This document shows positions 18,541 through 61,293 of a DNA stretch of 64,000 nucleotides, piece after piece. Positions within the stretch are counted from its first letter, which is position 1. Each line of letters begins with the position of its first letter. This DNA is from a bacterium. Lineage in GTDB: Bacteria; Patescibacteriota; Andersenbacteria; UBA10190. The stretch is from positions 78,895-142,894 of the forward strand of contig JAUYKA010000008.1 in assembly GCA_030698495.1 (NCBI GenBank). The letters are read 5' to 3'. The notes below the pieces were generated by a model. That model ran no database searches. It saw only the letters and a list, made by a program, of their open reading frames with translations, and was not told the origin of the DNA. The position numbers and the translations under genes were made by a program.

Positions 18541-19353
18541 ATGTTTCAGGAAAGAAACGACGACTGGCTACAGGGGGTGTTGCCGGCGGAAGCGCCGCTC
18601 GTTGGCGTTGGTTTGGGTGGAATTTGCGAAGGTTGGTTGCCTAACGTATTGCTGTACATGCAGGCGGGTGTTTTGCCGCTAAAACGTGTCATCCTTGTTG
18701 ATGGCAAGAAGTTTTCTGCCCATAATCATGGCCGCCAGAACTTTCGGAATGAGGCTAATAAGGCCGAGGAGAGAAAAGTGATGTGGGGCGCTATGTACCC
18801 CACTCTGCCGATATATGCGGTTGGCCAGTTTGTGGATGAGCACAACATTGCGCAGTTTATTCCCGAGGGCACAGTGGTGTTGCTGTCTCCAGACAATCAT
18901 CCGACACGAGCATTGTTCGCCAGGCATGTCAGCACGCTGAATAACGCTCTGTTGATTTGCGGCGGTAACGATGGTATTAATAAGGAAGGAGGGGAGGATG
19001 GTACCCAGGGTTGGGCAGCGATTTACTGCCGAAGGGCAGGAATGAACGTAACTGCACCACTAACGACGTATCATCCGGAAATCGCGGAAGCGTCTGAAAA
19101 AATGCCGTCAGTAATGAGCTGTATGGAATTGGCGCAAGCCGGACAGCCACAGCTGCTGGCAACAAATCTGCACGTTGGACAAATAATGGCATATCTGTTG
19201 CATCGTTATCTGACCATGCCTTTAGGGCAAGCGTTGGAAGTGGTGGAGCAGAGATGCAATATTGCCACAGGGGAAGTCGTTCGGTTTGGTATCCGCGAGC
19301 GTTTCGCGGATACGGTGTTTTGTCTGGGTCACGAGAAAGGAGAACCATCATGA
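18541..19353 (+). CDS. E1-like ThiF/MoeB-family adenylyltransferase (non-canonical, no CxxC zinc motifs, no rhodanese)
   Basis: Start at ATG after GGAGG. GVGLGGICEGWLPNVLLYMQAGVLPLKRVILVDGKKFSAHNHGRQNF matches the E1 nucleotide-binding loop and the D-x8-N-x2-RQ adenylation motif; LSPDNHPTRALFARHVSTLNNALLICGG matches the downstream E1 block. Confidence 0.6.
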   Translation: MFQERNDDWLQGVLPAEAPLVGVGLGGICEGWLPNVLLYMQAGVLPLKRVILVDGKKFSAHNHGRQNFRNEANKAEERKVMWGAMYPTLPIYAVGQFVDEHNIAQFIPEGTVVLLSPDNHPTRALFARHVSTLNNALLICGGNDGINKEGGEDGTQGWAAIYCRRAGMNVTAPLTTYHPEIAEASEKMPSVMSCMELAQAGQPQLLATNLHVGQIMAYLLHRYLTMPLGQALEVVEQRCNIATGEVVRFGIRERFADTVFCLGHEKGEPS

Positions 19354-19688
19354 CCAAGACACTGGCAAGCGGTGCGGTGCTGTTGAGAACGCGGCGCATC
19401 GAACGTGTGCGCCCGGGCGAAGACCACACACTCGTCGTGAAGCACGGCGGATCGAGTGCCTGCCTGCGCTTCAACGAGGCGGTCTCCGTTACGGACCTGG
19501 CCAGCTACTGCACGGGACAGCTCGGCTGGTCAGTGGAGGGCATGGCCTTCGTGGTTGACGGTCAGCGCTACGAAGCGAGCCAGGCAGACGGGATCAGGGT
19601 GGATGCCAGTACCAACAAGGTTGAGTTGGGACATCCGGTGGTGCCGAGCAACCTCGAGTTCGTGCGCAAGGTCGGCGCCAAGGGGTAG
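19350..19688 (+). CDS. small protein (112 aa), GC3-rich foreign codon usage, C-terminal Gly; candidate beta-grasp/ubiquitin-like partner of the E1-like protein
   Basis: ATGA overlap with E1-like gene; about 63% GC versus about 50% surroundings; pattern ...FVVDGQRY...DGIRVDASTNKVELGHPVV loosely ThiS/MoaD-like; ends ...VGAKG. Confidence 0.35.
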   Translation: MTKTLASGAVLLRTRRIERVRPGEDHTLVVKHGGSSACLRFNEAVSVTDLASYCTGQLGWSVEGMAFVVDGQRYEASQADGIRVDASTNKVELGHPVVPSNLEFVRKVGAKG

Positions 19689-19817: not shown

Positions 19818-20714
19818 ATGTCTCAAGTTAATATAGTTATTGTTAATTGGAATACGGGAGGGTTACTGGCTAAGTGCTTGCGGTCTTTGGTGGATTCGGG
19901 TGATAGGGATTTAATCAATAAGATCTTTGTGGCGGATAACGCTTCGTCCGATAATTCGCTGGCGCAGGCCAAGCGGGTATCCGGTGAAATGAATAATGTG
20001 GCATGGATGGAGTTATCGGGAAATCTTGGTTTTGCCAAGGCCAATAATTTGGCTCTGGCTAAATCCGGTTTTAATAATCATGTATTGCTTTTAAATCCCG
20101 ATACGCAGGTCGCCCCCGGAGCGATCAGGGCTTTACTAAAAACTTTTGACGAGGATAAGAAAGCGGGTGTTGTAGGCGCCCGATTACTCAATACTGACGG
20201 GTCGATACAGCCGTCGGTGCGTTTACTGCCGACCGGGAAAATTCTGGCGGGATTAATGCTGAAGTTAAACCGCTTGAGACCTAAGGCAAAAATGTGGCGG
20301 GAGTATTTGGCCGAGGATTTTGACTACCGCAAACAACAAGAAGTGGAGCAGGTAATGGGTGCGGTTTTTTTAATTAATAAAGAATTACTGCGTCAAATAG
20401 GGGGGCTGGACGAGTGTTTTTGGATTTGGTTTGAAGAAGTTGATTATTGTTTTAATGCCAGAAAGAGGGGCTGGAGAATTGTTTATCGCCCGGACGCGCC
20501 AGTAGTCCATTTTGGAGGAGCAAGTTTAAATCAGCTGGTAGGAATTAAAAAAAGCTGGTTGTGGGCAATCGCTTCCATTAAATACGCGTCAAAAAATTTA
20601 AGAGGATTTTCGGCCGTGCTGCTCATCTTGTTATTACCGATCAGTTTAGTTCTGTCGATTCCGGCCGGACTGCATCATCGGCAATTGCGCGCTAATACAA
20701 AGGAGAAGATATGA
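19818..20714 (+). CDS. glycosyltransferase family 2 (rhamnosyltransferase-like)
   Basis: 298 aa; IVIVNWNTG ... ADNASSD ... and NPD motif. Confidence 0.7.
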   Translation: MSQVNIVIVNWNTGGLLAKCLRSLVDSGDRDLINKIFVADNASSDNSLAQAKRVSGEMNNVAWMELSGNLGFAKANNLALAKSGFNNHVLLLNPDTQVAPGAIRALLKTFDEDKKAGVVGARLLNTDGSIQPSVRLLPTGKILAGLMLKLNRLRPKAKMWREYLAEDFDYRKQQEVEQVMGAVFLINKELLRQIGGLDECFWIWFEEVDYCFNARKRGWRIVYRPDAPVVHFGGASLNQLVGIKKSWLWAIASIKYASKNLRGFSAVLLILLLPISLVLSIPAGLHHRQLRANTKEKI

Positions 20715-22117
20715 ATAAGTTTTATGTTTGGTTTTTGGCGGCAGCGGGGGGTGGTTTGACGACGGCAATACTAATAAGTACAAACGCCGGTTTATTGGTG
20801 TTACTGGCGATTGTCGGCGCGTGGTGGATATGGCAATATCCGGAATATTCTTTTTGGACGCTGATTGTAGCGGCACCTCTTTTACCGATGCTTAAAGCGA
20901 CGCAAACACTGGGCGAACTCACGTTGTTAAAAGACATGATTATTTTAGTGTTGTTTGTGAAACTTTTTGGCTGGCCGCTATTAACAAAGCGGCTCGAGTG
21001 GCGGCGTAATATCTTAGTGGCGCCGATTACTTTACTGATTGTGTGGGTGGCGATAAATACTTTGCGGGCGAATTCGCTGACGTTAGGAATTTTGCGAGCG
21101 CGGGAAATAGTTCTCTATGTTCTATTGTATTTTGCCGTTTTATATTTACCGGCAAGCGAAGGGTTTTTAAAAAAGACATGGCAATGGTTTATAGCCTCGG
21201 CGGTTGTGGTGGTGTTGCTGGGGGTATATCAGTGGTTTTGGGCCGGCGACAGCGCTGTATTGCGATTTGATCCGGCGCGAAGTATTTGGATTCCTCGAAT
21301 GTCGGCGACTTTGGGGCATCCCAGTGTGTTGGGAGAGTATTTGATTGTCGTGTGGACTCTGCTATTGGCTAGCGTCTTAGTCTTTGGGAAAAAATTATCT
21401 TGGTGGGGGTCGGTTATAGCTATGTTGTTTCTACTACCGTTTATTTATTTAACGTACTCGCGGTCGGTTTGGCTGGGACTGGGAACGGCAATAGCGGTTA
21501 TCGCAGTCGTGTGGTTGGTAAAATATGTTCGGCAAAAGCGGGTGATAAGAAAAGGTTATATGTTGGCGGGGCTAACGGCGGTAATAATTTTGTCGGCGGT
21601 ATTTATGCGTTTCACTAGTGCGGGCGTATTTTTACGCACAGCGATTGATCCGACATACGGCAGTAATCAAGATCGAATTATGTTGGTAGCTAATATTATT
21701 GGCGATACCACAAACGGGCAGGCTATCTGGGGTAAGGGGCTGGGAAACGTGGTGACACAGCAGTATGAGGGGGCAGATGCGACAGCGGAGGATATTGCGG
21801 AGCTGGATTCGCGTACGGTGCAATTAGCGAAAGCTAGTACGTTGGTTGATAATCAATATCTTAAGACGTTCGCCGAGCTCGGGCTGATAGGTATATTGAT
21901 ATATTTATGGATTTATTATCGGATCGCGCGGAAGTGTTGGCGGGTCATTGTTGGAGGCGGCGCGAAGTCGCAATTAGTTATAGGCTGGTGGGGGTTGGGC
22001 TTTTTGGCGGCGTTTGTGACGCAGGCTTTGTTTATAGATATATGGGACGTTTGGCCGACCAACGCCATTTTTTGGGTAGCGGCTGCTATGGTGTCGCGCG
22101 AGGTATTGACAAAATAA
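20711..22117 (+). CDS. O-antigen ligase/polymerase-like (Wzy_C domain) polytopic membrane protein
   Basis: 468 aa; >=10 TM; YLTYSRSVWLGLGTAIAV block typical of Wzy_C/O-antigen ligase family; overlaps upstream GT2 stop. Confidence 0.55.
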   Translation: MNKFYVWFLAAAGGGLTTAILISTNAGLLVLLAIVGAWWIWQYPEYSFWTLIVAAPLLPMLKATQTLGELTLLKDMIILVLFVKLFGWPLLTKRLEWRRNILVAPITLLIVWVAINTLRANSLTLGILRAREIVLYVLLYFAVLYLPASEGFLKKTWQWFIASAVVVVLLGVYQWFWAGDSAVLRFDPARSIWIPRMSATLGHPSVLGEYLIVVWTLLLASVLVFGKKLSWWGSVIAMLFLLPFIYLTYSRSVWLGLGTAIAVIAVVWLVKYVRQKRVIRKGYMLAGLTAVIILSAVFMRFTSAGVFLRTAIDPTYGSNQDRIMLVANIIGDTTNGQAIWGKGLGNVVTQQYEGADATAEDIAELDSRTVQLAKASTLVDNQYLKTFAELGLIGILIYLWIYYRIARKCWRVIVGGGAKSQLVIGWWGLGFLAAFVTQALFIDIWDVWPTNAIFWVAAAMVSREVLTK

Positions 22118-22366
22118 AATATTTGTTTAGGATAGTAATGTTCTTTCAGAAGCAAATACCGGCCGCCGCAGCTGTTGTGGACGAACAGCGGAGAGAAGCG
22201 GTGTGCGGCTGTGACGCGTAGTTCTCCGACATGGGGCCCTTTTTGGGGCAAGCGCGTCACGGCAACCTCCAGTATTTCGTTGATTGAGTTCCGTTAATTT
22301 TTGTCTGTTTTTCAATTGTGACAGCCAGCTGGCAAACGGGATTCTCAACAATACCGGAGGTTTTTT

Positions 22367-23380
22367 TTAAAATCCTCGTCTTATTTTACGCCAGTAGTCG
22401 ATTGCCCATAGTTGACGGTAGCGCCAAGATAGGGGCAGATCATGGGCGTGCAGGTAATCGATAGCGCGTCCGCCGAAGCCTTTTTTAAAAACAGTAATGC
22501 CGGCGAAGGGGTGATGGGGTTTATCGTCCGGAGCGATGCCCCAGAAGTTGTATAGTTCAGCCCCTCTTTTTTGGGCTTCCAGAATAGAGTGCCACTGCAG
22601 AAGCTGGGCGCCAGGAATTTTGCTTACTTTTATGGAAGCACCGTGGTGATAAAAAACTTTGTTGCCGCATTGAATAAAAATACCGGCAGCTATGTCTTTG
22701 CCTTGATAGGAAGCAATGACGGCGTAGGCGGATTTGGTGCCGGAGAATTGTTGAAATTCTTCGCGGATTGAGTCAATGGAAAAGGGGACAAAGCCATGGC
22801 GTACGGTGGTGACTTGGTATAGCGGGGCAAAGTGATCGATGGCTGATTGATCTGTGATTACAAAGCAGGTTACGCCCATTTTTTCAGCTTTATTGATTGC
22901 TTGGCGACTGGTTTTGCGCATATTGGCCAGTAATGTTTCCGCTGGCAAATTGATATCCAATATCCAAGTAAGTTCACTGTGAATATGAAGCGGGGCAGGT
23001 TTGAAACCAAGTTGTTTTAATGTATCCCGGTTTGTTTGACTATTAATTAATAGCGGAGCCAGACGCAGGGCTAACACGCGGTCTTGGCGAGCGCGGGATT
23101 TAAGGTAAGAAATTATTGCGGGAAGATACTTTAAAGTTTGTTCTTCGGATAAAAATGCCGGTCCGTGGGGAATCAGGTAGTGGCGGCCGCGGCGGGCATT
23201 GACGATTATAATTTGGGCGAGGCCGATTAGCTGGTTATCGTTAAAGATGCCGAGGCGAATAATGTTTTCGCCGGATTTATTTTGGACTTCGCCCCACTGC
23301 CAAGTTTGGAGGAAGGTGTTTGGTGATAGAGTCAGGAGAAAGGAAGTCCATTGATTTCGGTCGGTGATTTCTTGGATCAT
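22367..23380 (-). CDS. FemAB-family peptidyl/aminoacyl transferase (peptidoglycan interpeptide bridge formation)
   Basis: Start moved to internal Met (MIQEITDRNQWTSFLLTLSPNTFLQTWQWGEVQ...) because the upstream 27 codons translate a GC-rich palindromic repeat; FemAB N-terminal W..F..Q..W motif pattern. Confidence 0.6.
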   Translation of the reverse strand: MIQEITDRNQWTSFLLTLSPNTFLQTWQWGEVQNKSGENIIRLGIFNDNQLIGLAQIIIVNARRGRHYLIPHGPAFLSEEQTLKYLPAIISYLKSRARQDRVLALRLAPLLINSQTNRDTLKQLGFKPAPLHIHSELTWILDINLPAETLLANMRKTSRQAINKAEKMGVTCFVITDQSAIDHFAPLYQVTTVRHGFVPFSIDSIREEFQQFSGTKSAYAVIASYQGKDIAAGIFIQCGNKVFYHHGASIKVSKIPGAQLLQWHSILEAQKRGAELYNFWGIAPDDKPHHPFAGITVFKKGFGGRAIDYLHAHDLPLSWRYRQLWAIDYWRKIRRGF

Positions 23381-23404
23381 AGAGTAACTTGTTTTTGATA
23401 ATCC

Positions 23405-23515
23405 GATCTCCCGCGGGTCCTGCCGCGCTCGAGCCCCCGCCCGACGGCTTCCCCCGCCCAAGGGCGGGGTGCAGGCGCTCGGCGGGGGACCCCCCAGCGC
23501 GTCACCCGCGGTGAA
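23405..23515. repeat. GC-rich palindromic intergenic element (family member 1)
   Basis: CCCCGCCC-aag-GGCGGGG hairpin, CCCGCGGG palindrome; shares the CCCCGCC...GGCGGGG / GCCCGCC...GGCGGGC hairpin type with copies at 26.7 kb and 59.3 kb. Confidence 0.5.
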
Positions 23516-26568: not shown

Positions 26569-26650
26569 AAAACTATATTATAACAGATTGGGCCGCAGTG
26601 TAGGGTAAATAATTTTGGTGCTGCTTAGGTTATTTGCTAACTTGTGTTTT

Positions 26651-26850
26651 CTCCGGCGAGTGTCACTTTTCGCGGCACCTACTCCCGGCGACACCAGCCG
26701 TCGCTCACGAGCTATGGCCGGCAAGGCATAGTGCCCGCTCCAGCGGCGGTCGCTACTCGACTAAAAGCCTGTCATCCCCGCCTTTTAGGCGGGGATGACA
26801 GGCTATTAGACGGTCGCCGGGAGCAGGTACCACGAGTGACACTCGCCGCG
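26651..26850. repeat. GC-rich nested palindromic element (family member 2, most complete copy)
   Basis: Nested inverted repeats: CCGGCGAGTGTCAC (26653-26666) / GTGACACTCGCCG (26836-26848); CTCCCGGCGAC / GTCGCCGGGAG; central 16-bp perfect hairpin GCCTGTCATCCCCGCC-tttta-GGCGGGGATGACAGGC. Confidence 0.6.
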
Positions 26851-26971
26851 GGAGCGCCAGTGATGTGGCAATATTTAAAAAAACCAAATACGCTTTTAGA
26901 CTTTCCTGATTTACACTGCTTGAAAGACAGAAGAAAACAATTGTTGCTGATTTTTCGAGATATTAGTTAGC

Positions 26972-27937: not shown

Positions 27938-28169
27938 TATGAATTTCAATTTTGTATGGTTAAGGTTGAATTTTCAATCTTCAATTTCCAATTTTCATAT
28001 AATAGCCAATGACCAATTACTAAATACACCCTAGAATTGAATGTGATTTACATGGTTGAAAATTGTTAAATTGTAATTTATATGGAAATTGGAAATTGTG
28101 CATTGGAAATTTGTCGCTATTGCGACATATAGTTATATATCCTAGTCTATAGCGTTAAGCGAGTAATTT

Positions 28170-28979: not shown

Positions 28980-29145
28980 ATAAGATTGGCATTGTGAAAA
29001 GTAAAATTTGGTTAGAGATGTGATGTTTTGCTCAAATTCCAAAATCCAAATAACAAATTTCAAATAAAAACCCAAATGTCCAATTACAAATTTATATAAA
29101 TTATAGAATATATAAGGTGGTTTTAAATGAGTTATAATATCGGAC

Positions 29146-31270: not shown

Positions 31271-31451
31271 CTTAATGACAAAGTTCAAATGTCAAATGAC
31301 AAATTAAATCCAAAAATTTAAACGTCAAAAGATTCGTTTTTTGATATTTGTAATTTGACATTTGGATTTTGAAATTATTTGTATTTAGCTTATGGATGGC
31401 TTGAATGGCATAGTAGGAGCTGGAGTATAATTATTCGGGTATTATATAATT

Positions 31452-34024: not shown

Positions 34025-34229
34025 ATTGAGCTGTGGTTGTAAAGAATATTAACTCTTGATGATTTTTTTGTGTTTATATGAATAGAATAATTTTCAATTA
34101 TTAATTTCCAATTTTCAAACCTTTACGCCACCTGCTAAGAGTTACGCTGTTGTACGTAACATTTGGAAATTGGGTAATTGGGATTTAAATGGAAATTGGA
34201 AATTGATTAATTTGGTATAGAATGTCTTT

Positions 34230-44993: not shown

Positions 44994-45129
44994 AAACGTA
45001 AAGCGTAAAACTCAAAACAACAACGAAAAAGTAAAAATATTCAGTGGCCGATATATGGAGTTTTTAGTGGTTATTTTAGTTTGAAGTTTTTCGTTTTAAG
45101 TTTAAGTGATTTGTCTATATACTTAGGTT

Positions 45130-46490: not shown

Positions 46491-46551
46491 CTCCCGTGCC
46501 CAGCCGTCGCTAAAGCTATGGCCGGCACGGCGCGCACTAAGGCTGTTGGCC
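46491..46551. repeat. GC-rich palindromic element (family member 3, short copy)
   Basis: CTCCCGTGCCCAGCCGTCGCTAAAGCTATGGCCGGCACGG aligns to 26682-26726 (CTCCCGGCGACACCAGCCGTCGCTCACGAGCTATGGCCGGCAAGG). Confidence 0.55.
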
Positions 46552-47086: not shown

Positions 47087-47133
47087 AAGATCAATTTTCA
47101 ATTATCAATTTCCAATTTCCAAACATTAAGAAT

Positions 47134-52245: not shown

Positions 52246-52357
52246 CGAGGATGGCTGCCTATTTGGTTTTGACGCCAAATTTCTCATGCTTATTTTTACG
52301 TTAAGGTATTCCGCCGGCACGGCAATGGCGTCAAAACCAAATAGGCAGCCATCCTCG
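52246..52357. repeat. 31-bp perfect inverted repeat flanking a 50-nt spacer (GC-rich palindromic element family member 4)
   Basis: CGAGGATGGCTGCCTATTTGGTTTTGACGCC (52246-52276) is the exact reverse complement of 52327-52357; spacer contains GCCGGCACGGC also present in copy 3. Confidence 0.7.
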
Positions 52358-54721: not shown

Positions 54722-54923
54722 ACAAATATATACGTTTTTTGAGATTTAAAGGTAAAACGTAAAACGAAAAAGGCAAAACAACATCATAAAAACTAAAAAC
54801 ATAACGACAAAAATTCGTTGTTATTTTTTGCTTTTTCTTGTTGTTGTAAGTTTTACGTTTTAAGTTTTACGTTTTTGATTATTCTACTTGCTACGTGCTG
54901 CTAGTGTCAGTTATCATGCCTAG

Positions 54924-56063
54924 ATGTCTGAAATTGAGCAGCTGAAAGTGGCTTTAGTGCATGACGAGCTTACCCGCCGGGGCGGGGCGGAGATTGTACT
55001 CGAAGAGTTAGCGATGATTTTTCCGCAGGCTGATATTTATGCGCTATACGCCGGGCGGCCGATGATGAGTATTAATGGCCGCAAGAGGAGCGTGCATACT
55101 TCTTTTCTGCAGCACTGGCCGTTGTGGTGGCGCCGTCATCCTAAAAGAGTATTACCGCTTTTGCCGTACGCGGCCGAGCAATTGGATTTATCCGGATACG
55201 ATGTTGTTATAAGTTCGGCCAGCGGGTTTGTTAAAGGAATTATTACCAGGGCGGATATTCCACATGTATGCTACTGCCACACGCCGACAAGATATTTATG
55301 GGAAGACGCGGGAGCCGCCACAAGGCGGGCGCCGGTTTGGCAGAGATGGCCGGGCAGGATACTGCAACATTATTTACGTCTGGCCGATTTTGCCGCGGCC
55401 CAGCGGGTGGATTATTTTATCGCCAATTCCCGCTGGACTAAGCAGAGGATAAATACTTATTATCGGCGCGAGGCCAAGGTAATTTATCCGCCGATAGATA
55501 CGTCATTTTTCACGCCGGCATACGAGAGTGTATCCGGGCGCCGGAAAAAATATTTCTTATGCGTCGGCCGACTGACACCGAGTAAGAATTTTGATCAGGC
55601 AATTGCCGTTGGTGAGAAATTACGCTTGCCCCTGGTTATTGCCGGAAGCGGTTACGACGAGAGGCGTTTACGAAAATTGGCGGGACCATACACAACTTTT
55701 GCCGGACGGGTTGATAGAGAAGAGTTACGCGACTTATATCGTAACGCGCGGGCATTATTACAGCCAGGCGCGGAAGATTTTGGTATGGCGGCGGCCGAGG
55801 CAGCCGCTTGCGGTACACCGGTTGTTGCCTATGGTGTGGGCGGTATTAGGGAAATTGCCGGAAAGCAAACGGCACAATTGTATGCGCAACCAACGGTGGA
55901 AGCACTGGCCGAAGCGATACGTAAATTTATCGTGCGAGAAAATAAATTTCGGCCGGAGCTTTGTCAGCAGGAGGTTCTAAAGTTTGGCTACAGCCGTTTC
56001 AAGCAAGAAGTAACGCATTTTGTAAAAAATGTTATTGCTAATGGTGTTGGCAAGACGGTATAA
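54924..56063 (+). CDS. glycosyltransferase family 4
   Basis: 379 aa; EDFGMAAAEAAACGTPVVAYGVGG motif. Confidence 0.7.
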   Translation: MSEIEQLKVALVHDELTRRGGAEIVLEELAMIFPQADIYALYAGRPMMSINGRKRSVHTSFLQHWPLWWRRHPKRVLPLLPYAAEQLDLSGYDVVISSASGFVKGIITRADIPHVCYCHTPTRYLWEDAGAATRRAPVWQRWPGRILQHYLRLADFAAAQRVDYFIANSRWTKQRINTYYRREAKVIYPPIDTSFFTPAYESVSGRRKKYFLCVGRLTPSKNFDQAIAVGEKLRLPLVIAGSGYDERRLRKLAGPYTTFAGRVDREELRDLYRNARALLQPGAEDFGMAAAEAAACGTPVVAYGVGGIREIAGKQTAQLYAQPTVEALAEAIRKFIVRENKFRPELCQQEVLKFGYSRFKQEVTHFVKNVIANGVGKTV

Positions 56064-56071
56064 TATAAATA

Positions 56072-56407
56072 GTGAAATATTCTCTGCAAGCGGAAAATTT
56101 AACAGTGACAGAAGCGGACAGGCTGTTATTAGAGAAAAAGATTGGCCGTCTTAAGAAACTGCTGCAGCCACCTTATATGGCGGATATTAGGTTTTGGCAT
56201 GACACTCACCATATCAAGGGTGAGGTTGTTAACTGTGTGATGAACGTTAAAGAAGGGAAGAGAGTATTTCATAGCGAGCGCGTCGGCGACAGTATGCAGA
56301 AGGCATTGGACGAATGTTTGCAGGCGATTAAGAGCGAGATTGCAAAAAATCACGGGAAGGGCAAGAGGCGTCGGTTTTGGTGGAGTAAGTTGGCGAAAGA
56401 AACGTAA
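56072..56407 (+). CDS. hpf: ribosome hibernation promoting factor / RaiA (S30AE family)
   Basis: 111 aa; MKYSLQAENLTVTEADRLLLEKKIGRLKKLL ... HSERVGDSMQKALDECLQAIKSEIAK matches HPF beta-alpha-beta-beta-beta-alpha pattern. Confidence 0.65.
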   Translation: MKYSLQAENLTVTEADRLLLEKKIGRLKKLLQPPYMADIRFWHDTHHIKGEVVNCVMNVKEGKRVFHSERVGDSMQKALDECLQAIKSEIAKNHGKGKRRRFWWSKLAKET

Positions 56408-56570
56408 AACTGAAAGCGAAAAACTTAAAATAACAACTTAAAACTCAAAACAGTTGTCAAGCTGGCGGTGGGAATTTTTTGTTTTATACTGTTGTTTTTC
56501 GTTTTGCGCTTTACGCTTTAAGTTTTCTGTGCTTTTGACAAGCGCCTATTTAGAAGTAAGGTGTAGTATA

Positions 56571-59207
56571 ATGGCTTGGTTAAATTTTATTAATCAACGA
56601 AGCCGCCATGAAAAGGCGGTGGATAAATATAAGCCGGTAGTAGAGAGGATAAACGCTTTGGAGCCGGAATTACAATCTCTGTCGGACAGTGAGTTGAAAG
56701 CGCGCGCGCAAAAATATAAGGGTAAGGATGTTGAAGCAATAAAAAAGGATAAGGATCAGGTTTTTGCTATTGTGCGCGAGGCGGCCAAGCGAAGTTTAAA
56801 AATGCGGCATTTCGACGTGCAGTTGATGGGCGGATTGGCGTTACTCGATCAGGCGATAGCGGAGATGAAAACGGGAGAAGGAAAAACTTTGGTGGCAACC
56901 CTGCCCTTGAGCCTGCACGCCTTAACGGGCAAGGGGGCACATCTGGTGACGGTAAATGATTATTTGAGCAAGCGCGATGCCGAGTGGATGCGGCCGGTTT
57001 ACGAGTTTCTGGGATTAACCGTGGGAGTAATCAGTCCGGGACAGCTGCCGGCGGAAAAACGAGAGGCTTACGCGGCGGATATTACTTACGGTACCAACAA
57101 TGAGTTCGGGTTTGATTATTTACGCGATAATATGGCGGTGCAGGCGGAAAATATGGTGCAAAGGCCGCTCTGGTACGGAATTGTGGATGAGGTGGACAGT
57201 ATTTTGATTGATGAGGCGAGAACACCGCTGATTATTTCGGCGCCGGACATGGAGTCGACGAGAATGTACCAGCAATTCGCTTCTTTAGTCCCGCAGCTAA
57301 AGGAAAATGAAGACTATAATATTGACGAGAAGAGACGGGCGGCGACCTTAACAGATGAGGGCGTGACAAAAGTTGAAGGGTTGTTGGGAGTTGATAATAT
57401 TTACGCGGAGAACGGCATCAGGCAGGTACATCATCTGGAGCAGGCCTTGCGGGCACAGACTTTGTATCACCGCGACAAAGATTATGTGGTGCGCGAGGGG
57501 CAAGTAATAATTGTGGACGAGTTTACCGGACGATTGATGGAGGGCCGGCGCTATTCGGAAGGACTTCATCAGGCCATAGAAGCCAAGGAAAAAGTGAAGG
57601 TGAAGCAGGAGAGCCGGACACTGGCGACAATCACTTTCCAGAATTTTTTCCGTCTTTATCCGTATTTGGCGGGCATGACCGGGACGGCAGTAACATCGGC
57701 CGAGGAGTTTGAAAAAGTTTACAACTTGGATGTGCTGGTGGCGCCGACAAATAAACCGCTGGTGAGAAAAGATTTACCCGACAGAATTTATGTTAACGAA
57801 CAAGCGAAGTTCATGGCTGTTATGAACGAGATAAAACAGCGCAATCAGAAGGGACAGCCAGTGCTGGTGGGCACTATTGCTATTGAAAAGTCGGAATATT
57901 TATCAGCGCTGCTACAGCGGGAGGGAATCAGGCACGAGGTTTTAAATGCCAAACATCATCAGCGCGAAGCAGAAATTATCGCCCAGGCAGGGCAAAAAGG
58001 CGCGGTGACAATTTCTACAAATATGGCCGGACGCGGGACGGATATTAAATTGGGCGAGGGTGTGGTTGATTTAGGCGGGTTATTGGTCATAGGCACGGAG
58101 CGGCATGAAGCACGCCGTATTGACAATCAGTTGCGCGGGCGATCGGGACGGCAAGGCGATCCGGGCGAGACACGGTTTTTTGTCAGTCTGGAAGACGATG
58201 TGATGAGAGTTTTCGGCGGGGACAGGTTAAAGAAAATTATGCAGACGCTGAAGCTGCCGCCGGAAGAAGCAATTGAGAGCCGGATGGTCAATCGGGCACT
58301 GGAAGGAGCGCAGGAGCGGGTGGAAGGTTATTACTTTGATATGCGCAAACAGGTTTTGTCTTACGACGATGTGCTTAACCGCCAGCGCAACGCCATTTAT
58401 ACTTTGCGGCGAGGAGTGATGCTGGAGGGAAAATGGAAAGAAGCAAATAAAGAGGCGGAAGGATTGGCGGAGCATATCGAGTCTTTGCTGGACGAGCAGG
58501 CGCGCCAGCTGGTTTTGATTCACACGGGCGAGGGCGGGCCAGACAGCTGGGATATAGAGGAGATTGCCGAGGCAATGCATTCGCTGACAGGGATTGATAT
58601 CGCGGCGGCGCGGTTGGATTACGAAAAGATTCTAGCGGAACAAAAAATGGGTCCGGAGGAGGCGCGCGAGGCGTTGGTTGATAGGGCGGCGGAACAGCTG
58701 CGGCAAAGGCTTTCGGCGCGAAAGGAAGAATTGGGTAGCGCCACGCTGGAGCAATTGGAGCGGGCAGCAACGATTCGTTCGATTGATATTCACTGGATGG
58801 ATCATTTGGATACAATGGATTACTTGCGTACAGGGATAGGCTTGCGCGGGTACGGCCAGCGCGATCCGCTGGTGGAATACCAGAAGGAAAGCTTTCAGTT
58901 GTTTCGGAATTTGCTGGCGACAATTAAATCCTCAATAGTGGAAGTGGTGTTTAAGGCAGAAGCGGTGAAGCAGGAGGCGGAGCATGGCGTGGCGCGGCAT
59001 GACGAGACTTCGGTTTTGTCAGCGGCGCAATCATCGCCTACGCCAAGCGCCGGCGGTCAGCTGGCAGCAGCCGCGCAGGCAGCCGGTTCGCAGACACTAA
59101 AGAATCCATATAAGGGAGTGGGGAGAAACGACCCATGTCCGTGCGGAGCGACTAAACCGGATGGCACCCCCAAGAAGTTTAAACAATGCCACGGTAGGAA
59201 TACATAG
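56571..59207 (+). CDS. secA: preprotein translocase ATPase SecA (with C-terminal zinc-binding tail)
   Basis: Start at internal ATG 56571 (MAWLNFIN... aligns with SecA N-terminus); MRHFDVQLMGG, AEMKTGEGKTL (Walker A); C-terminal CPCGATKPDGTPKKFKQCHG. Confidence 0.9.
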   Translation: MAWLNFINQRSRHEKAVDKYKPVVERINALEPELQSLSDSELKARAQKYKGKDVEAIKKDKDQVFAIVREAAKRSLKMRHFDVQLMGGLALLDQAIAEMKTGEGKTLVATLPLSLHALTGKGAHLVTVNDYLSKRDAEWMRPVYEFLGLTVGVISPGQLPAEKREAYAADITYGTNNEFGFDYLRDNMAVQAENMVQRPLWYGIVDEVDSILIDEARTPLIISAPDMESTRMYQQFASLVPQLKENEDYNIDEKRRAATLTDEGVTKVEGLLGVDNIYAENGIRQVHHLEQALRAQTLYHRDKDYVVREGQVIIVDEFTGRLMEGRRYSEGLHQAIEAKEKVKVKQESRTLATITFQNFFRLYPYLAGMTGTAVTSAEEFEKVYNLDVLVAPTNKPLVRKDLPDRIYVNEQAKFMAVMNEIKQRNQKGQPVLVGTIAIEKSEYLSALLQREGIRHEVLNAKHHQREAEIIAQAGQKGAVTISTNMAGRGTDIKLGEGVVDLGGLLVIGTERHEARRIDNQLRGRSGRQGDPGETRFFVSLEDDVMRVFGGDRLKKIMQTLKLPPEEAIESRMVNRALEGAQERVEGYYFDMRKQVLSYDDVLNRQRNAIYTLRRGVMLEGKWKEANKEAEGLAEHIESLLDEQARQLVLIHTGEGGPDSWDIEEIAEAMHSLTGIDIAAARLDYEKILAEQKMGPEEAREALVDRAAEQLRQRLSARKEELGSATLEQLERAATIRSIDIHWMDHLDTMDYLRTGIGLRGYGQRDPLVEYQKESFQLFRNLLATIKSSIVEVVFKAEAVKQEAEHGVARHDETSVLSAAQSSPTPSAGGQLAAAAQAAGSQTLKNPYKGVGRNDPCPCGATKPDGTPKKFKQCHGRNT

Positions 59208-59264
59208 GGCTTAACTTATACATAGCTTACTGAATTAATCTCCGCCGGGTGAACCCTACTTAGC

Positions 59265-59408
59265 CTTACCACTCCTTCCTTCTGGCGGCACACTTGCCCG
59301 CCCCAGCGGCGGGCTGCGCTCGACTTATGGCCTTGCCACTTTGCCCATAAGGCAAAGACCAGGCTGGCAAGGCCATGAGACGGCCGCCAGAAGGAAGGAG
59401 TGGTAAGG
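59265..59408. repeat. 26-bp perfect inverted repeat enclosing 93 nt with nested palindromes (GC-rich palindromic element family member 5)
   Basis: CCTTACCACTCCTTCCTTCTGGCGGC (59265-59289... checked base by base) is the reverse complement of GCCGCCAGAAGGAAGGAGTGGTAAGG (59383-59408); interior GCCCGCCCCAGCGGCGGGCTGCGCTCGAC is homologous (24/29) to 26746-26774. Confidence 0.7.
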
Positions 59409-59539
59409 CTAGGCGCCTGCGGGCGCCACCCGCCGCGATTGTTGGCATAATATGGGTATAATTTATGTAATTAATTAGCGCGGAGCGACCAGGTGATATA
59501 ATGTAAACGTCATGATTTCTTAAATTTTTGCCTATTTTT

Positions 59540-59593
59540 AATATAAATAAAAAAGACCAGTTACCTATACGCCTTTCGACTTGGTAACTGGTT
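59540..59593 (-). terminator. orphan minus-strand rho-independent terminator
   Basis: 10-bp stem ACCAGTTACC / GGTAACTGGT (59556-59565 / 59583-59592) with 17-nt loop; on minus strand followed by TCTTTTTTATTTAT; no minus-strand CDS upstream of it. Confidence 0.55.
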
Positions 59594-59866
59594 GGGCTCA
59601 AGGTCAAGCTTCTGCGGGCGATTATTCGTCCGGAGAAGTGGTTACTTAAGCCCGGGAGCGTCTGGAAGGCCTGATCTCCCCACCGAGCTGGCCTTTGTGT
59701 GTTAGCACACAACCTCCAGGCTGGGACTTTCCCATCACTCGGCCTGTGTGAATATTTATAGATAAAATACAATTAGTCAAGTATATTGCCTAATAAACAT
59801 GGTGGTTAGTTGGGTGTTATACTTTAGCTACTGGGTTCTAATTTTTTTGACCGATTTTAAAAAGAT

Positions 59867-60280
59867 ATGCGTATAGGAATTATTGGCAGCATGAATTTTA
59901 GCGAGAAGATGATTGAAGTGGCCCGCGATTTAGAAAAACTTGGGCACGAGGTAGTGCTGTCAAATTTTGTTAATGATTTTCCCGGAAAGAGCGATGGGGA
60001 GAAAGAAGACATAAAGCTGCAACAAAAGTTTGAGGAAAATGCGATGCGGCGGGATTGGGAGAAAATGAAGGGCACTGATGCGTTGCTGGTAATTAATTTT
60101 GAGAGACACGGAATAGCCAACTACATTGGCGGCAATACTCTTTTTGAGTTGGCAGCAGGATATTTTGGTAGCAAGAAGATTTTTTTTTACAATCCAATTC
60201 CGGATATTAAGTTTTATAAGACGGAGCTGGAGGCGATAGAGCCTGTTGTTATAAATGGTGATTTGAGTAAGATAGTGTAA
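59867..60280 (+). CDS. nucleoside 2-deoxyribosyltransferase-like small Rossmann protein (tentative)
   Basis: 137 aa; MRIGIIGSM ... ALLVINFERHG...YIGGNTLFELAAGYFGSKKIFF resembles PF05014-type pattern; low certainty. Confidence 0.35.
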   Translation: MRIGIIGSMNFSEKMIEVARDLEKLGHEVVLSNFVNDFPGKSDGEKEDIKLQQKFEENAMRRDWEKMKGTDALLVINFERHGIANYIGGNTLFELAAGYFGSKKIFFYNPIPDIKFYKTELEAIEPVVINGDLSKIV

Positions 60281-60291
60281 AAGCATGACGT

Positions 60292-60750
60292 ATGAAGTCT
60301 AATAAAGCTAAATACGCGCCGAGGGATGTTTGGGAACAGATTTTGGAGTGGGCGGTTATTCCGACTTTTGATTTGGTGATTGAGTACGGCGAAAAAGGAA
60401 TTGTTATGGTTAAGAGAAAAATTGCGCCTTATAAAAATCAGTGGGCGCTGCCGGGTTTGCGTATGATGAAGGGTGAGGAAATAAACGATACTTTGGTCAG
60501 AATTGCCAGCCAGGAAGTCGGGTTAAAAATTAATCCAAGGAAAAGGATGTTTTTAGGTCAATATGTAGGAAAGTTTAAAACGGAAAAGCAGAGGCAAGAT
60601 TTGTCTACGGGGTATATGGTTAGAATAGAGGAAAGTCAGCAGATAAAAATCAACTCGGAACATTTTTCGGCTTATAAAATAGTTAAGTCAGCCCCGTCTC
60701 CAATGGGAGCGATGTATAAGTTTTATATAAAAGAGAGTAAGCCTAAATGA
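60292..60750 (+). CDS. NUDIX-family hydrolase (degenerate Nudix box)
   Basis: WALPGLRMMKGEEINDTLVRIASQEVGLKI approximates G-x5-E-x7-REUxEExGU. Confidence 0.5.
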   Translation: MKSNKAKYAPRDVWEQILEWAVIPTFDLVIEYGEKGIVMVKRKIAPYKNQWALPGLRMMKGEEINDTLVRIASQEVGLKINPRKRMFLGQYVGKFKTEKQRQDLSTGYMVRIEESQQIKINSEHFSAYKIVKSAPSPMGAMYKFYIKESKPK

Positions 60751-60956
60751 TTAAGCTGGGAAAATACAGACACTATAAAGGCAAGGAGTATGAGGTGATT
60801 GGGGTGGCTAAGCACAGTGAGACGTTGGAGGAGTTGGTAGTTTATCGGGCGCTTTATGGGGAGCACCAGATATGGGCACGACCGGTTGTGATGTTTTTGG
60901 AGGAAGTTGAGGTTTATGGTAAGAAGGTTCCTAGGTTTGAGTTTGTTGGTGAATAG
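60747..60956 (+). CDS. DUF1653-family small protein
   Basis: YRHYKGKEYEVIGVAKHSETLEELVVYRALYGEHQIWARPVVMFLEEV...RF matches DUF1653 consensus; ATGA overlap with upstream gene. Confidence 0.65.
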   Translation: MIKLGKYRHYKGKEYEVIGVAKHSETLEELVVYRALYGEHQIWARPVVMFLEEVEVYGKKVPRFEFVGE

Positions 60957-60970
60957 TTTTATATACATAT

Positions 60971-61234
60971 ATGGATAGTCTGGAACAAAGAATACGAGTA
61001 GTGGAAGAAAGAAACCAAAGGGTTGAAGCGGATAAGGCGTGGGAGACTAGCTGGGTGCGCCGGGGATTGTTGATCATATTCACCTACTTGGCGATAGGAG
61101 TGTATATGTGGGCAATTAACATAGCCAGACCATGGCTTAATGCTATTGTGCCGGCAGTGGCATTTATGATTTCGACTCTAACGATGCCGTTTTTCAAGAA
61201 GCTATGGTTAATGGCTAGAGATAGAAAAATGTGA
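60971..61234 (+). CDS. small two-TM membrane protein, hypothetical
   Basis: 87 aa; two hydrophobic helices after a charged N-terminal helix. Confidence 0.35.
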   Translation: MDSLEQRIRVVEERNQRVEADKAWETSWVRRGLLIIFTYLAIGVYMWAINIARPWLNAIVPAVAFMISTLTMPFFKKLWLMARDRKM

Positions 61235-61293
61235 GCGGAAGGGAATTTTTTGCTTTTTACGGGTAGGCCGTTATAGTAGAATAATTATAAGGT

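Follow-up and report, generated by a model that had tools for sequence, protein, structure and literature searches.

What is a long, perfect inverted repeat doing directly after secA in a member of the Patescibacteria (CPR), bacteria with tiny genomes in which few repeats or regulatory RNAs have been described? The repeat lies on a 64,000-nt stretch of contig JAUYKA010000008.1 (assembly GCA_030698495.1), which is referred to here as the window. The SecA protein encoded in the window is 100% identical to a protein of 'MAG: Candidatus Andersenbacteria bacterium'; its next-best match has about 71% identity, or 75% for a partial protein. A preliminary description of the locus had judged the repeat too long to persist by chance, and had taken it to imply either recent origin or selection, for example as an RNA hairpin, as a recombinase or transposase recognition structure or as a MITE. 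The explanation which fits our results best, and which we hold with moderate confidence, is that the repeat (hereafter copy B) is one copy of a small, lineage-specific and unstable family of GC-rich, noncoding nested-palindrome repeats in Candidatus Andersenbacteria (Patescibacteria).

Structure of the inverted repeat downstream of secA

The 26-mer CCTTACCACTCCTTCCTTCTGGCGGC is found at 59264-59289 on the + strand and its exact reverse complement at 59383-59408, the arms being separated by 93 nt as originally reported; the true start is 59264 rather than 59265, and the perfect repeat extends beyond the 26 bp first recognised to 29 nt, with arms at 59261-59289 and 59383-59411. The 26-mer inverted repeat found a match in none of 100 dinucleotide-preserving shuffles of the window, and the view that it is too long for chance therefore stands. 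Recent origin and selection are, however, not the only ways of accounting for such arms, as a third option is ongoing correction of one arm by the other through template switching.

The repeat is part of a nested structure of ~200 nt (59243-59437), in which an outer stem, P1, encloses the long stem P2, which in turn leads to a three-way junction with two hairpins, P3 and P4. The 5' strand of P1 (CGCCGGGTG, 59243-59251), defined from the MFE folds and the alignment with copy A (described below), is flanked by a motif, TCTCCGCCGGGTG, which according to the same alignment is common to copy A; the 3' strand of P1 (CACCCGCCGCG, 59427-59437) has a counterpart motif in copy A, CACTCGCCGCG, recognised by alignment and fold. 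The left and right arms of the 29-nt repeat are the 5' and 3' strands of P2, of which all 29 pairs are Watson-Crick and none G.U, and an 8-nt expansion, TTCCTTCT, is mirrored in the opposite arm. P3 (59296-59314) is the hairpin GCCCGCC-CCAGC-GGCGGGC, with a 17-nt core, GCCCGCYCCAGCGGCGG, that is the same in copy A save at Y. The longer P4 (59321-59382) is stacked directly on P2 and has a base, CGACU.../...AGACG, with a conserved A.A mismatch, a 7-nt bulge and the tip TTTGCC-CATAA-GGCAAA. An extra small hairpin between P2 and P1 (GCGCC-TGCG-GGCGC, 59413-59426) is absent from copy A. Both of the interior sub-hairpins noticed in the preliminary description, TATGGCCTTGCC/GGCAAGGCCATGA and TTTGCC-cataa-GGCAAA, are present inside the repeat as it had them.

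The RNA folding of both strands that had been proposed gave about -141 kcal/mol for each; for 59225-59450 the values were -141.1 kcal/mol (z = -11.4) on the + strand and -142.3 kcal/mol (z = -9.9) on the - strand, so that the two fold equally well. As single-stranded DNA, 59238-59447 folded at -83.7 kcal/mol (z = -12.8).

A second copy and a fragment of the element

Copies A and B are homologous, with a common architecture of P1 enclosing P2 and P2 leading to the three-way junction with P3 and P4. Copy A (26650-26860), which was identified by nhmmer, covariance models and pair counts, is situated between a Mur ligase gene (-) and a GT2 gene (+) which are divergent; it has the P1/P2/P3/P4 arrangement in the same orientation as copy B, plus a 34-nt insert, and folds at -147.5 kcal/mol (z = -11.7). 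The link between the two was found by nhmmer with E-values of 1.9e-4 and 1.1e-3 (1.29-Mb database), and both a 147-position full covariance model (R1) and a 77-position core model (R2) matched copies A and B only, in the window and the secA loci of relatives. Identity is about 70-84% over the alignable parts, with near-identical blocks in P1 (TCTCCGSCGRGTG on the 5' strand and CACYCGCCGCG on the 3' strand), in the inner P2 (GGCGRCAC), in P3 (TGCCCGCYCCAGCGGCGG) and at the base of P4 (CTCGACTWA on the 5' strand, AGACGGYCGCC on the 3' strand). The motif ACC(T)ACTCC in the outer P2 is common to both copies, whose outer halves gave better alignments than shuffled sequences did (p about 0.017 and 0.0035). 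Among the 48 pairs common to the two folds, 34 are unchanged, one is a wobble, 13 show two-sided changes and none is broken, compared with only 33-49% paired in slid-partner controls; these counts should be considered with caution, as the set was chosen as paired in both MFE folds and the outer parts were aligned mostly by structure.

The family has a mosaic character, since the block GGCYGGCAAGGC(C)AT.AG is found at different positions in A and B. A 30-nt module within the insert of copy A (26694-26723) is also shared, by nhmmer, with a fragment at 46494-46530 (CCAGCCGTCGCT..AGCTATGGCCGGCA.GG), a lone hairpin just past a gene end which is identical in two other assemblies (L215 and L216). The elements have a GC content of 62-64%, against about 25-36% in most other intergenic regions of the window.

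The main rival explanation is that A and B are instead paralogous copies of a new structured non-coding RNA, cis-regulatory or small, in which the three-way-junction core (the inner P2, the CCAGC loop of P3 and the A.A at the base of P4) binds a protein or ligand and the pairing is under selection. We regard this as doubtful, albeit worth serious consideration. The 13 compensatory changes with no broken pair among the 48, the conservation of the P3 loop and P4 base between the copies, fold z-scores of about -10 to -12 and a promoter-like site upstream of copy A on the - strand all speak for such an RNA, as do the G.U pairs of copy A, which are present on both strands. Copy A folds better on the - strand (-150.0 kcal/mol, against -136.6 on the +) because three A.C mismatches of the + strand become G.U pairs, and the modelled wobble pairs hint that wobble may be tolerated at the RNA level. 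However, the G.U evidence as to which strand would be transcribed conflicts, P3 and the insert favouring + and the P2 of copy A favouring -, and the main stem of copy B is without any wobble pair, its two strands being indistinguishable. Furthermore, the conserved bases are mostly within stems whilst J2/3 and J3/4, the junction strands, show no conservation, and the placing of the GGCYGGCAAGGC(C)AT.AG module, different in each copy, likewise speaks against such an RNA.

With regard to the composition of the arms, the left arm of copy B is pyrimidine-rich at 59269-59283 (CCACUCCUUCCUUCU), resembling the anti-Shine-Dalgarno end of 16S rRNA, and the right arm contains AAGGAG at 59389-59403; the outer P2 of copy A has the same polarity (CCUACUCCC / GGGAGCAGG). 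This likeness could be due to chance or to common origin.

Variation among same-species assemblies

Assemblies of the same species, found by look-up of the window proteins, differ from the window at only three places in about 35 kb, and all three are within A or B. Of the bases compared, about 2% belong to the elements, and by our own arithmetic the chance of all three differences falling there is about 1e-5.

The first difference is in GCA_034372665.1 (L147), which matches the window at 55948-59285 and then at 59393-59679; the 109-nt segment absent is 59284-59392, or 59286-59394 through a 2-nt GG microhomology. The loss takes the whole three-way-junction core together with the inner 10 bp of P2, and the short allele which is left, TAGCCTTACCACTCCTTCC-TTCT-GGAAGGAGTGGTAAGGCTA, is a 19-bp perfect hairpin within P1 (-61.7 kcal/mol), whilst the 109-nt segment alone folds as a closed three-way-junction module with an AGAA tail. 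A Logan contig from run SRR26726065 (L148) ends exactly at 59285, and, as this unitig ends as at a branch, the long and short alleles of B may coexist in that sample. The second difference, in two further Logan contigs of the same run (L149/L150), is the absence of 49 nt from copy A (26770-26818), comprising the tip of P4 and GACGGTCGCC, with a 3-nt GCC microhomology. The third is a lone SNP in 4.1 kb, A>T at 26805, in a Logan contig of run SRR13727534 (L151) which has copy A at full length; it converts an A.A mismatch in P4 to an A-T pair and so lengthens the perfect palindrome.

The preliminary description had expected that absence from other strains without a detectable footprint would argue for a neutral, non-functional insertion. 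An absence was indeed found, that of the inner 109 nt in GCA_034372665.1, yet the 19-bp hairpin of the outer arms was kept, which argues that the core of B is dispensable or unstable. The existence of core-deleted alleles in an otherwise identical genome also counts against a structured RNA under selection. The long form must be the ancestral one, because A-B homology is found on both sides of the lost segment and the deletion in A is not module-shaped. As controls, about 20 kb of genes are identical among the same-species assemblies, and a 32-bp perfect repeat at 52246-52357 has been kept whole in the MAG that has the short B allele (L152), thus indicating that hairpins are not lost indiscriminately in that MAG. 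The deletions should nevertheless be considered with caution, as both trace to one run (SRR26726065), together with a MAG which is assumed to have been built from that run, and they may reflect polymerase jumping across hairpins in library preparation.

As palindromes often break or confuse assemblers, and two contigs (L001 and L148) end within the element, it could be argued that copy B is an assembly or sequencing artefact; alternatively, perfect inverted repeats around a short intergenic segment look like those of an invertible promoter switch (inverton). We consider either of these highly improbable. The left arm is present to 59285 in L147 and L148, and L001, which comes from an independent Logan assembly, has the right half from 59345 onwards; for the interior, of which 59286-59344 is covered by the window alone, there is a diverged homologue in copy A. 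The artificial palindrome feared in the preliminary description is thus not supported, with the arms present in other assemblies and a diverged homologue of the interior in the window. Points against an inverton are an interior orientated as in the window wherever other assemblies cover it, the lack of a recombinase among the ten ORFs near the elements and a 93-nt interior that is itself all hairpin.

The short allele of L147 could also be viewed as an empty site, in which case a 105-nt module (GGCGGC...GCCGCC) would be a small mobile element that enters hairpin loops. The boundary of the indel in B coincides with the start of this autonomously folding module, and we keep a small chance for such an element for that reason, quite unlikely as it is. 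The short allele is moreover a clean, perfect 19-bp hairpin with a TTCT loop, and L148 stops exactly at the junction, suggesting both alleles in one sample. Set against this, the homology of A and B continues outside the module, where both have the P1 motifs as well as ACC(T)ACTCC in the outer P2 (alignment p about 0.02 and 0.004), the deletion in copy A from the same sample is not module-shaped, and the junctions have 2-3-nt microhomology only, without a common cleavage motif or any direct duplication of a target. Nor did a scan of ten ORFs near the elements give a candidate enzyme; the neighbouring ORFs which were scanned encode a Mur ligase, GT2 glycosyltransferases, SecA, a hypothetical protein and a NUDIX protein. 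The suggestion of a transposase or recombinase recognition structure likewise finds no support, there being no such enzyme among the ten ORFs beside A, B and the repeat at 52246-52357. If the mobile element were real, its gain or loss would flip both the secA 3' end and the leaders of cell-envelope genes from one structural state to another within a population. That the 105-nt core (GGCGRC / P3 CCAGC loop / P4 A.A / GYCGCC) is an undescribed functional unit of the Patescibacteria, be it a protein-recognised RNA or a mobile module that targets hairpin loops, seems to us unlikely.

Proposed origin of the perfect arms

For the unstable repeat family which we favour, perfect complementarity would be upheld at the level of the DNA. 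Replication would stall at the hairpin and the nascent strand would copy the opposite arm, as in quasipalindrome template switching, so that a change in one arm would be mirrored in the other; the same hairpins would favour slippage between 2-3-nt microhomologies and hence internal deletions. Perfect arms, mirrored changes, a hairpin-perfecting SNP and microhomology deletions are known signatures of DNA palindromes. It is established that quasipalindromes grow more perfect via replication template switching (PMC7202029), and the promotion by stable hairpins of slippage deletions and SbcCD-type processing has been discussed for REP dimers (PMC3733652, section 14). As a counterpoint, compensated stems, a CCAGC loop and an A.A mismatch at the base of P4 would also be expected of a functional RNA or a protein-recognised hairpin.

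Distribution of the family

From related Patescibacteria, 80 secA loci totalling 1.22 Mb were sampled, and no copy of the element was found in them by nhmmer, R1 or R2; a weak match in one locus (L134, E = 0.47) is within an ORF and unstructured, and was attributed to chance. Among the Andersenbacteria-like loci, the 23 closest encode SecA proteins of 63-72% identity; in these, [379-aa gene]-HPF-secA is the gene order wherever the contig extends, and in 20 of the 23 secA is followed by secD-secF; none of these carries B. Given this absence from the syntenic loci of relatives, B is a lineage-specific insertion in a variable gap and not a conserved feature of secA. The lack of a copy in 1.2 Mb of relatives, and of an Rfam match, also weakens the case for a structured RNA.

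The gap between secA and secD in Andersenbacteria-like genomes (L065-L134, compared with 59208-61293 of the window) is a variable hotspot: its length lies between about 40 nt and 4.5 kb, and what it contains differs, the 137-aa protein and DUF1653 being among the occupants along with other genes.

Perfect repeats of at least 18 nt number three in the 64-kb window, as against 18 in the 1.22 Mb of relatives, where none of the repeats with arms of at least 25 nt is above 30% GC; GC-rich perfect repeats of this length are unusual for the clade. Beyond these relatives, an exact search of a genome contig collection with the 26-nt arm and blastn of B against phage and plasmid collections gave no match. 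Matches to the core motif at 63 loci in metagenome contigs were put down to chance, being from genomes of 54-77% GC with the remainder of the element missing, and none of the matches at 60 loci in viral contigs fits model R2. When the whole window was compared with Rfam 15 at gathering thresholds, no RNA family was matched, and permissive scans of B and A gave only sub-threshold matches to generic miRNA-precursor hairpins. The window contains no tRNA or tmRNA genes.

Genomic setting and transcription

The secA gene, with SecA domains and a zinc-finger C-terminus, has its stop codon at 59207 and the next + strand ORF begins at 59867. Copy B starts 31-54 nt past the secA stop codon, between convergent transcription units. 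A terminator scan of 59150-59900 found no terminator-like sites, and the 3' flank of B is GATTGTTGGCATAA; as there is no terminator between the secA stop and the element, B is probably transcribed as the 3' end of secA. That transcript end would probably fold to a hairpin of about -140 kcal/mol, which could block 3' exonucleases or undergo RNase III cleavage, and could insulate secA from a convergent small-RNA gene and the next promoter. Any such effect on secA would arise incidentally from a structural or selfish repeat and would not be a dedicated function. A role at the 3' end of an RNA cannot hold for the whole family, since copy A is between divergent genes; this difference in context, A between divergent genes and B after secA, is also at odds with paralogous copies of a single RNA.

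It is very unlikely that B is simply a terminator, Rho-independent or bidirectional, serving secA and the convergent small-RNA gene. Its position, 31-54 nt past the secA stop between convergent units, would suit a terminator, and long inverted repeats are found after many genes in the window. However, no U-tract follows B and none was found by the terminator scan, the element at ~200 nt and branched is far larger than terminators, its homologue A is between divergent genes, and the small-RNA gene has a canonical terminator of its own.

A coding function was considered and rejected, as the - strand ORF across B (59266-59772) is without a Pfam match and neither it nor the ORF spanning copy A is called as a gene in other assemblies. 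In those assemblies no gene is called downstream of secA (L147) or upstream of the 137-aa gene (L001).

Two further features were observed in this region. A putative + strand promoter, TTAGCG-16-TGATATAAT, was read by eye at about 59476-59508, where the promoter scan did not report one. The small-RNA-like gene, at 59550-59790 on the - strand and antisense to secA, has a promoter-like TTGACT-18-AATATT (59780->59751). Its body, about 200 nt long, is structured (z = -4.3), and the terminator consists of ACCAGTTACC-17 nt-GGTAACTGGT with a T-run behind it. Directly after secA in a relative there is a homologue (L080, 12716-12858; SecA 66% identical; nhmmer 2.5e-12), in which the terminator hairpin including its loop is near-identical to that of the window; there was no Rfam match.

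Other repeats in the window

The 52246-52357 repeat is a 32-nt perfect inverted repeat of 53% GC with a 48-nt spacer forming two small hairpins, located between murA and a PEGA-domain gene which are divergent; it resembles neither A nor B in sequence, and two Logan contigs break within its arm. Long imperfect inverted repeats that are AT-rich occur at 27969-28111, 34089-34207 and 47093-47124, and further ones at 44994-45103 / 54755-54875 and 29035-29091 / 31345-31377. These are built of short tandem motifs (e.g., AATTTTCAAT..TTCCAATTTTCA / TGGAAATTGGAAATT) and recur in co-directional intergenic regions, just behind the first gene and ahead of the second; they might serve as terminators or operators, or form a further repeat family.

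A GC-rich segment at 22160-22270, with the inverted repeats GTGACGCGT...GCGCGTCAC and CCGCAGCTGTT...AACAGCGG, is in the convergent gap between 20711-22117 (+) and 22367-23461 (-), and by blastn has no similarity to A or B. A small ORF at 19350-19688 lies in an unusually GC-rich (58%) stretch, possibly foreign DNA, and is followed by a canonical terminator, CCGTTGGA-CACCCG-TTCCAACGG, with a T-run.

Significance and comparison with known systems

A family which holds all of the strain-level variation observed here would be a concrete case of DNA secondary structure driving micro-evolution in the CPR. It also carries the practical warning that such elements break or shorten MAG assemblies. Should the core turn out to be an RNA or mobile module, the phylum would gain a new class of non-coding element; otherwise the element is an ordinary, though unusually large, palindromic repeat.

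Of the suggestions made in the preliminary description, that of a MITE or repeat element is nearest to our result, because a diverged second copy and a fragment are found in the same 64 kb. The terminal inverted repeats of a MITE are there, with the P1 strands TCTCCGSCGRGTG / CACYCGCCGCG bounding both A and B. The part which found no support concerns insertion and copy identity: the two copies seen in the 64 kb are not near-identical and target-site duplications are lacking, the flanks searched for direct repeats at A (GTGTTTT / CGCCAGT) and B (AATTAAT / ATTGTTG) containing none. A retron msr-msd was rejected, with no reverse transcriptase among the scanned neighbours and a topology which is nested and not side-by-side.

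In the REP/BIME/REPIN elements of Proteobacteria, as in our family, GC-rich intergenic palindromes form larger nested or dimeric hairpins with structured spacers (PMC3733652); these too are often found after genes, are transcribed as RNA hairpins and are prone to deletion at a frequency set by stem stability (PMC3733652, section 14). REP units are 20-40 bp long, with stems of about 8-9 bp or somewhat more, an unpaired GTAG/CGTC tag and a CCA tail, and are present in tens to hundreds of copies, often with a RAYT gene (PMC3733652). Unlike them, our elements have stems of 17-35 bp and no unpaired tag, and are seen as two copies and a fragment in 64 kb, with no RAYT seen. Membership of the GTAG/CGTC REPs is ruled out by stem size and tag, the - strand CGTC at the foot of P4 being base-paired.

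In 3'-UTR hairpins, such as the REP mRNA stabilisers and the RNase III retroregulation of lambda sib, a long duplex after the coding region sets the stability of the upstream mRNA. Copy B resembles these in having a long perfect duplex right after a coding region, with a predicted block to exonucleases or RNase III cut; the family differs in that copy A is not in a 3' UTR.

In mutational behaviour there is a likeness to quasipalindrome hotspots, where intramolecular template switching turns imperfect inverted repeats into perfect ones (PMC7202029); the SNP at 26805 which perfects the hairpin of A and the changes mirrored in both arms fit this. That work describes a mutational process in reporter genes and no element family, and thus explains the perfect arms and not the origin of the family (PMC7202029). 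Our elements share with the GC clusters of organelles strain polymorphism, a structure which is kept more than the sequence, and the lack of an associated enzyme. The GC clusters of yeast mitochondria and the double-hairpin elements of organelles are usually 30-100 nt long and present in many copies. In both cases GC-rich hairpin modules are scattered through AT-rich intergenic DNA (cf. PMC2800124), whereas the elements described here are bacterial (CPR), about 200 nt long and built of three nesting levels with a three-way junction. The kind of element is therefore already known, namely a palindromic intergenic repeat with hairpin-driven instability, whilst the family itself is undescribed and unusually elaborate.
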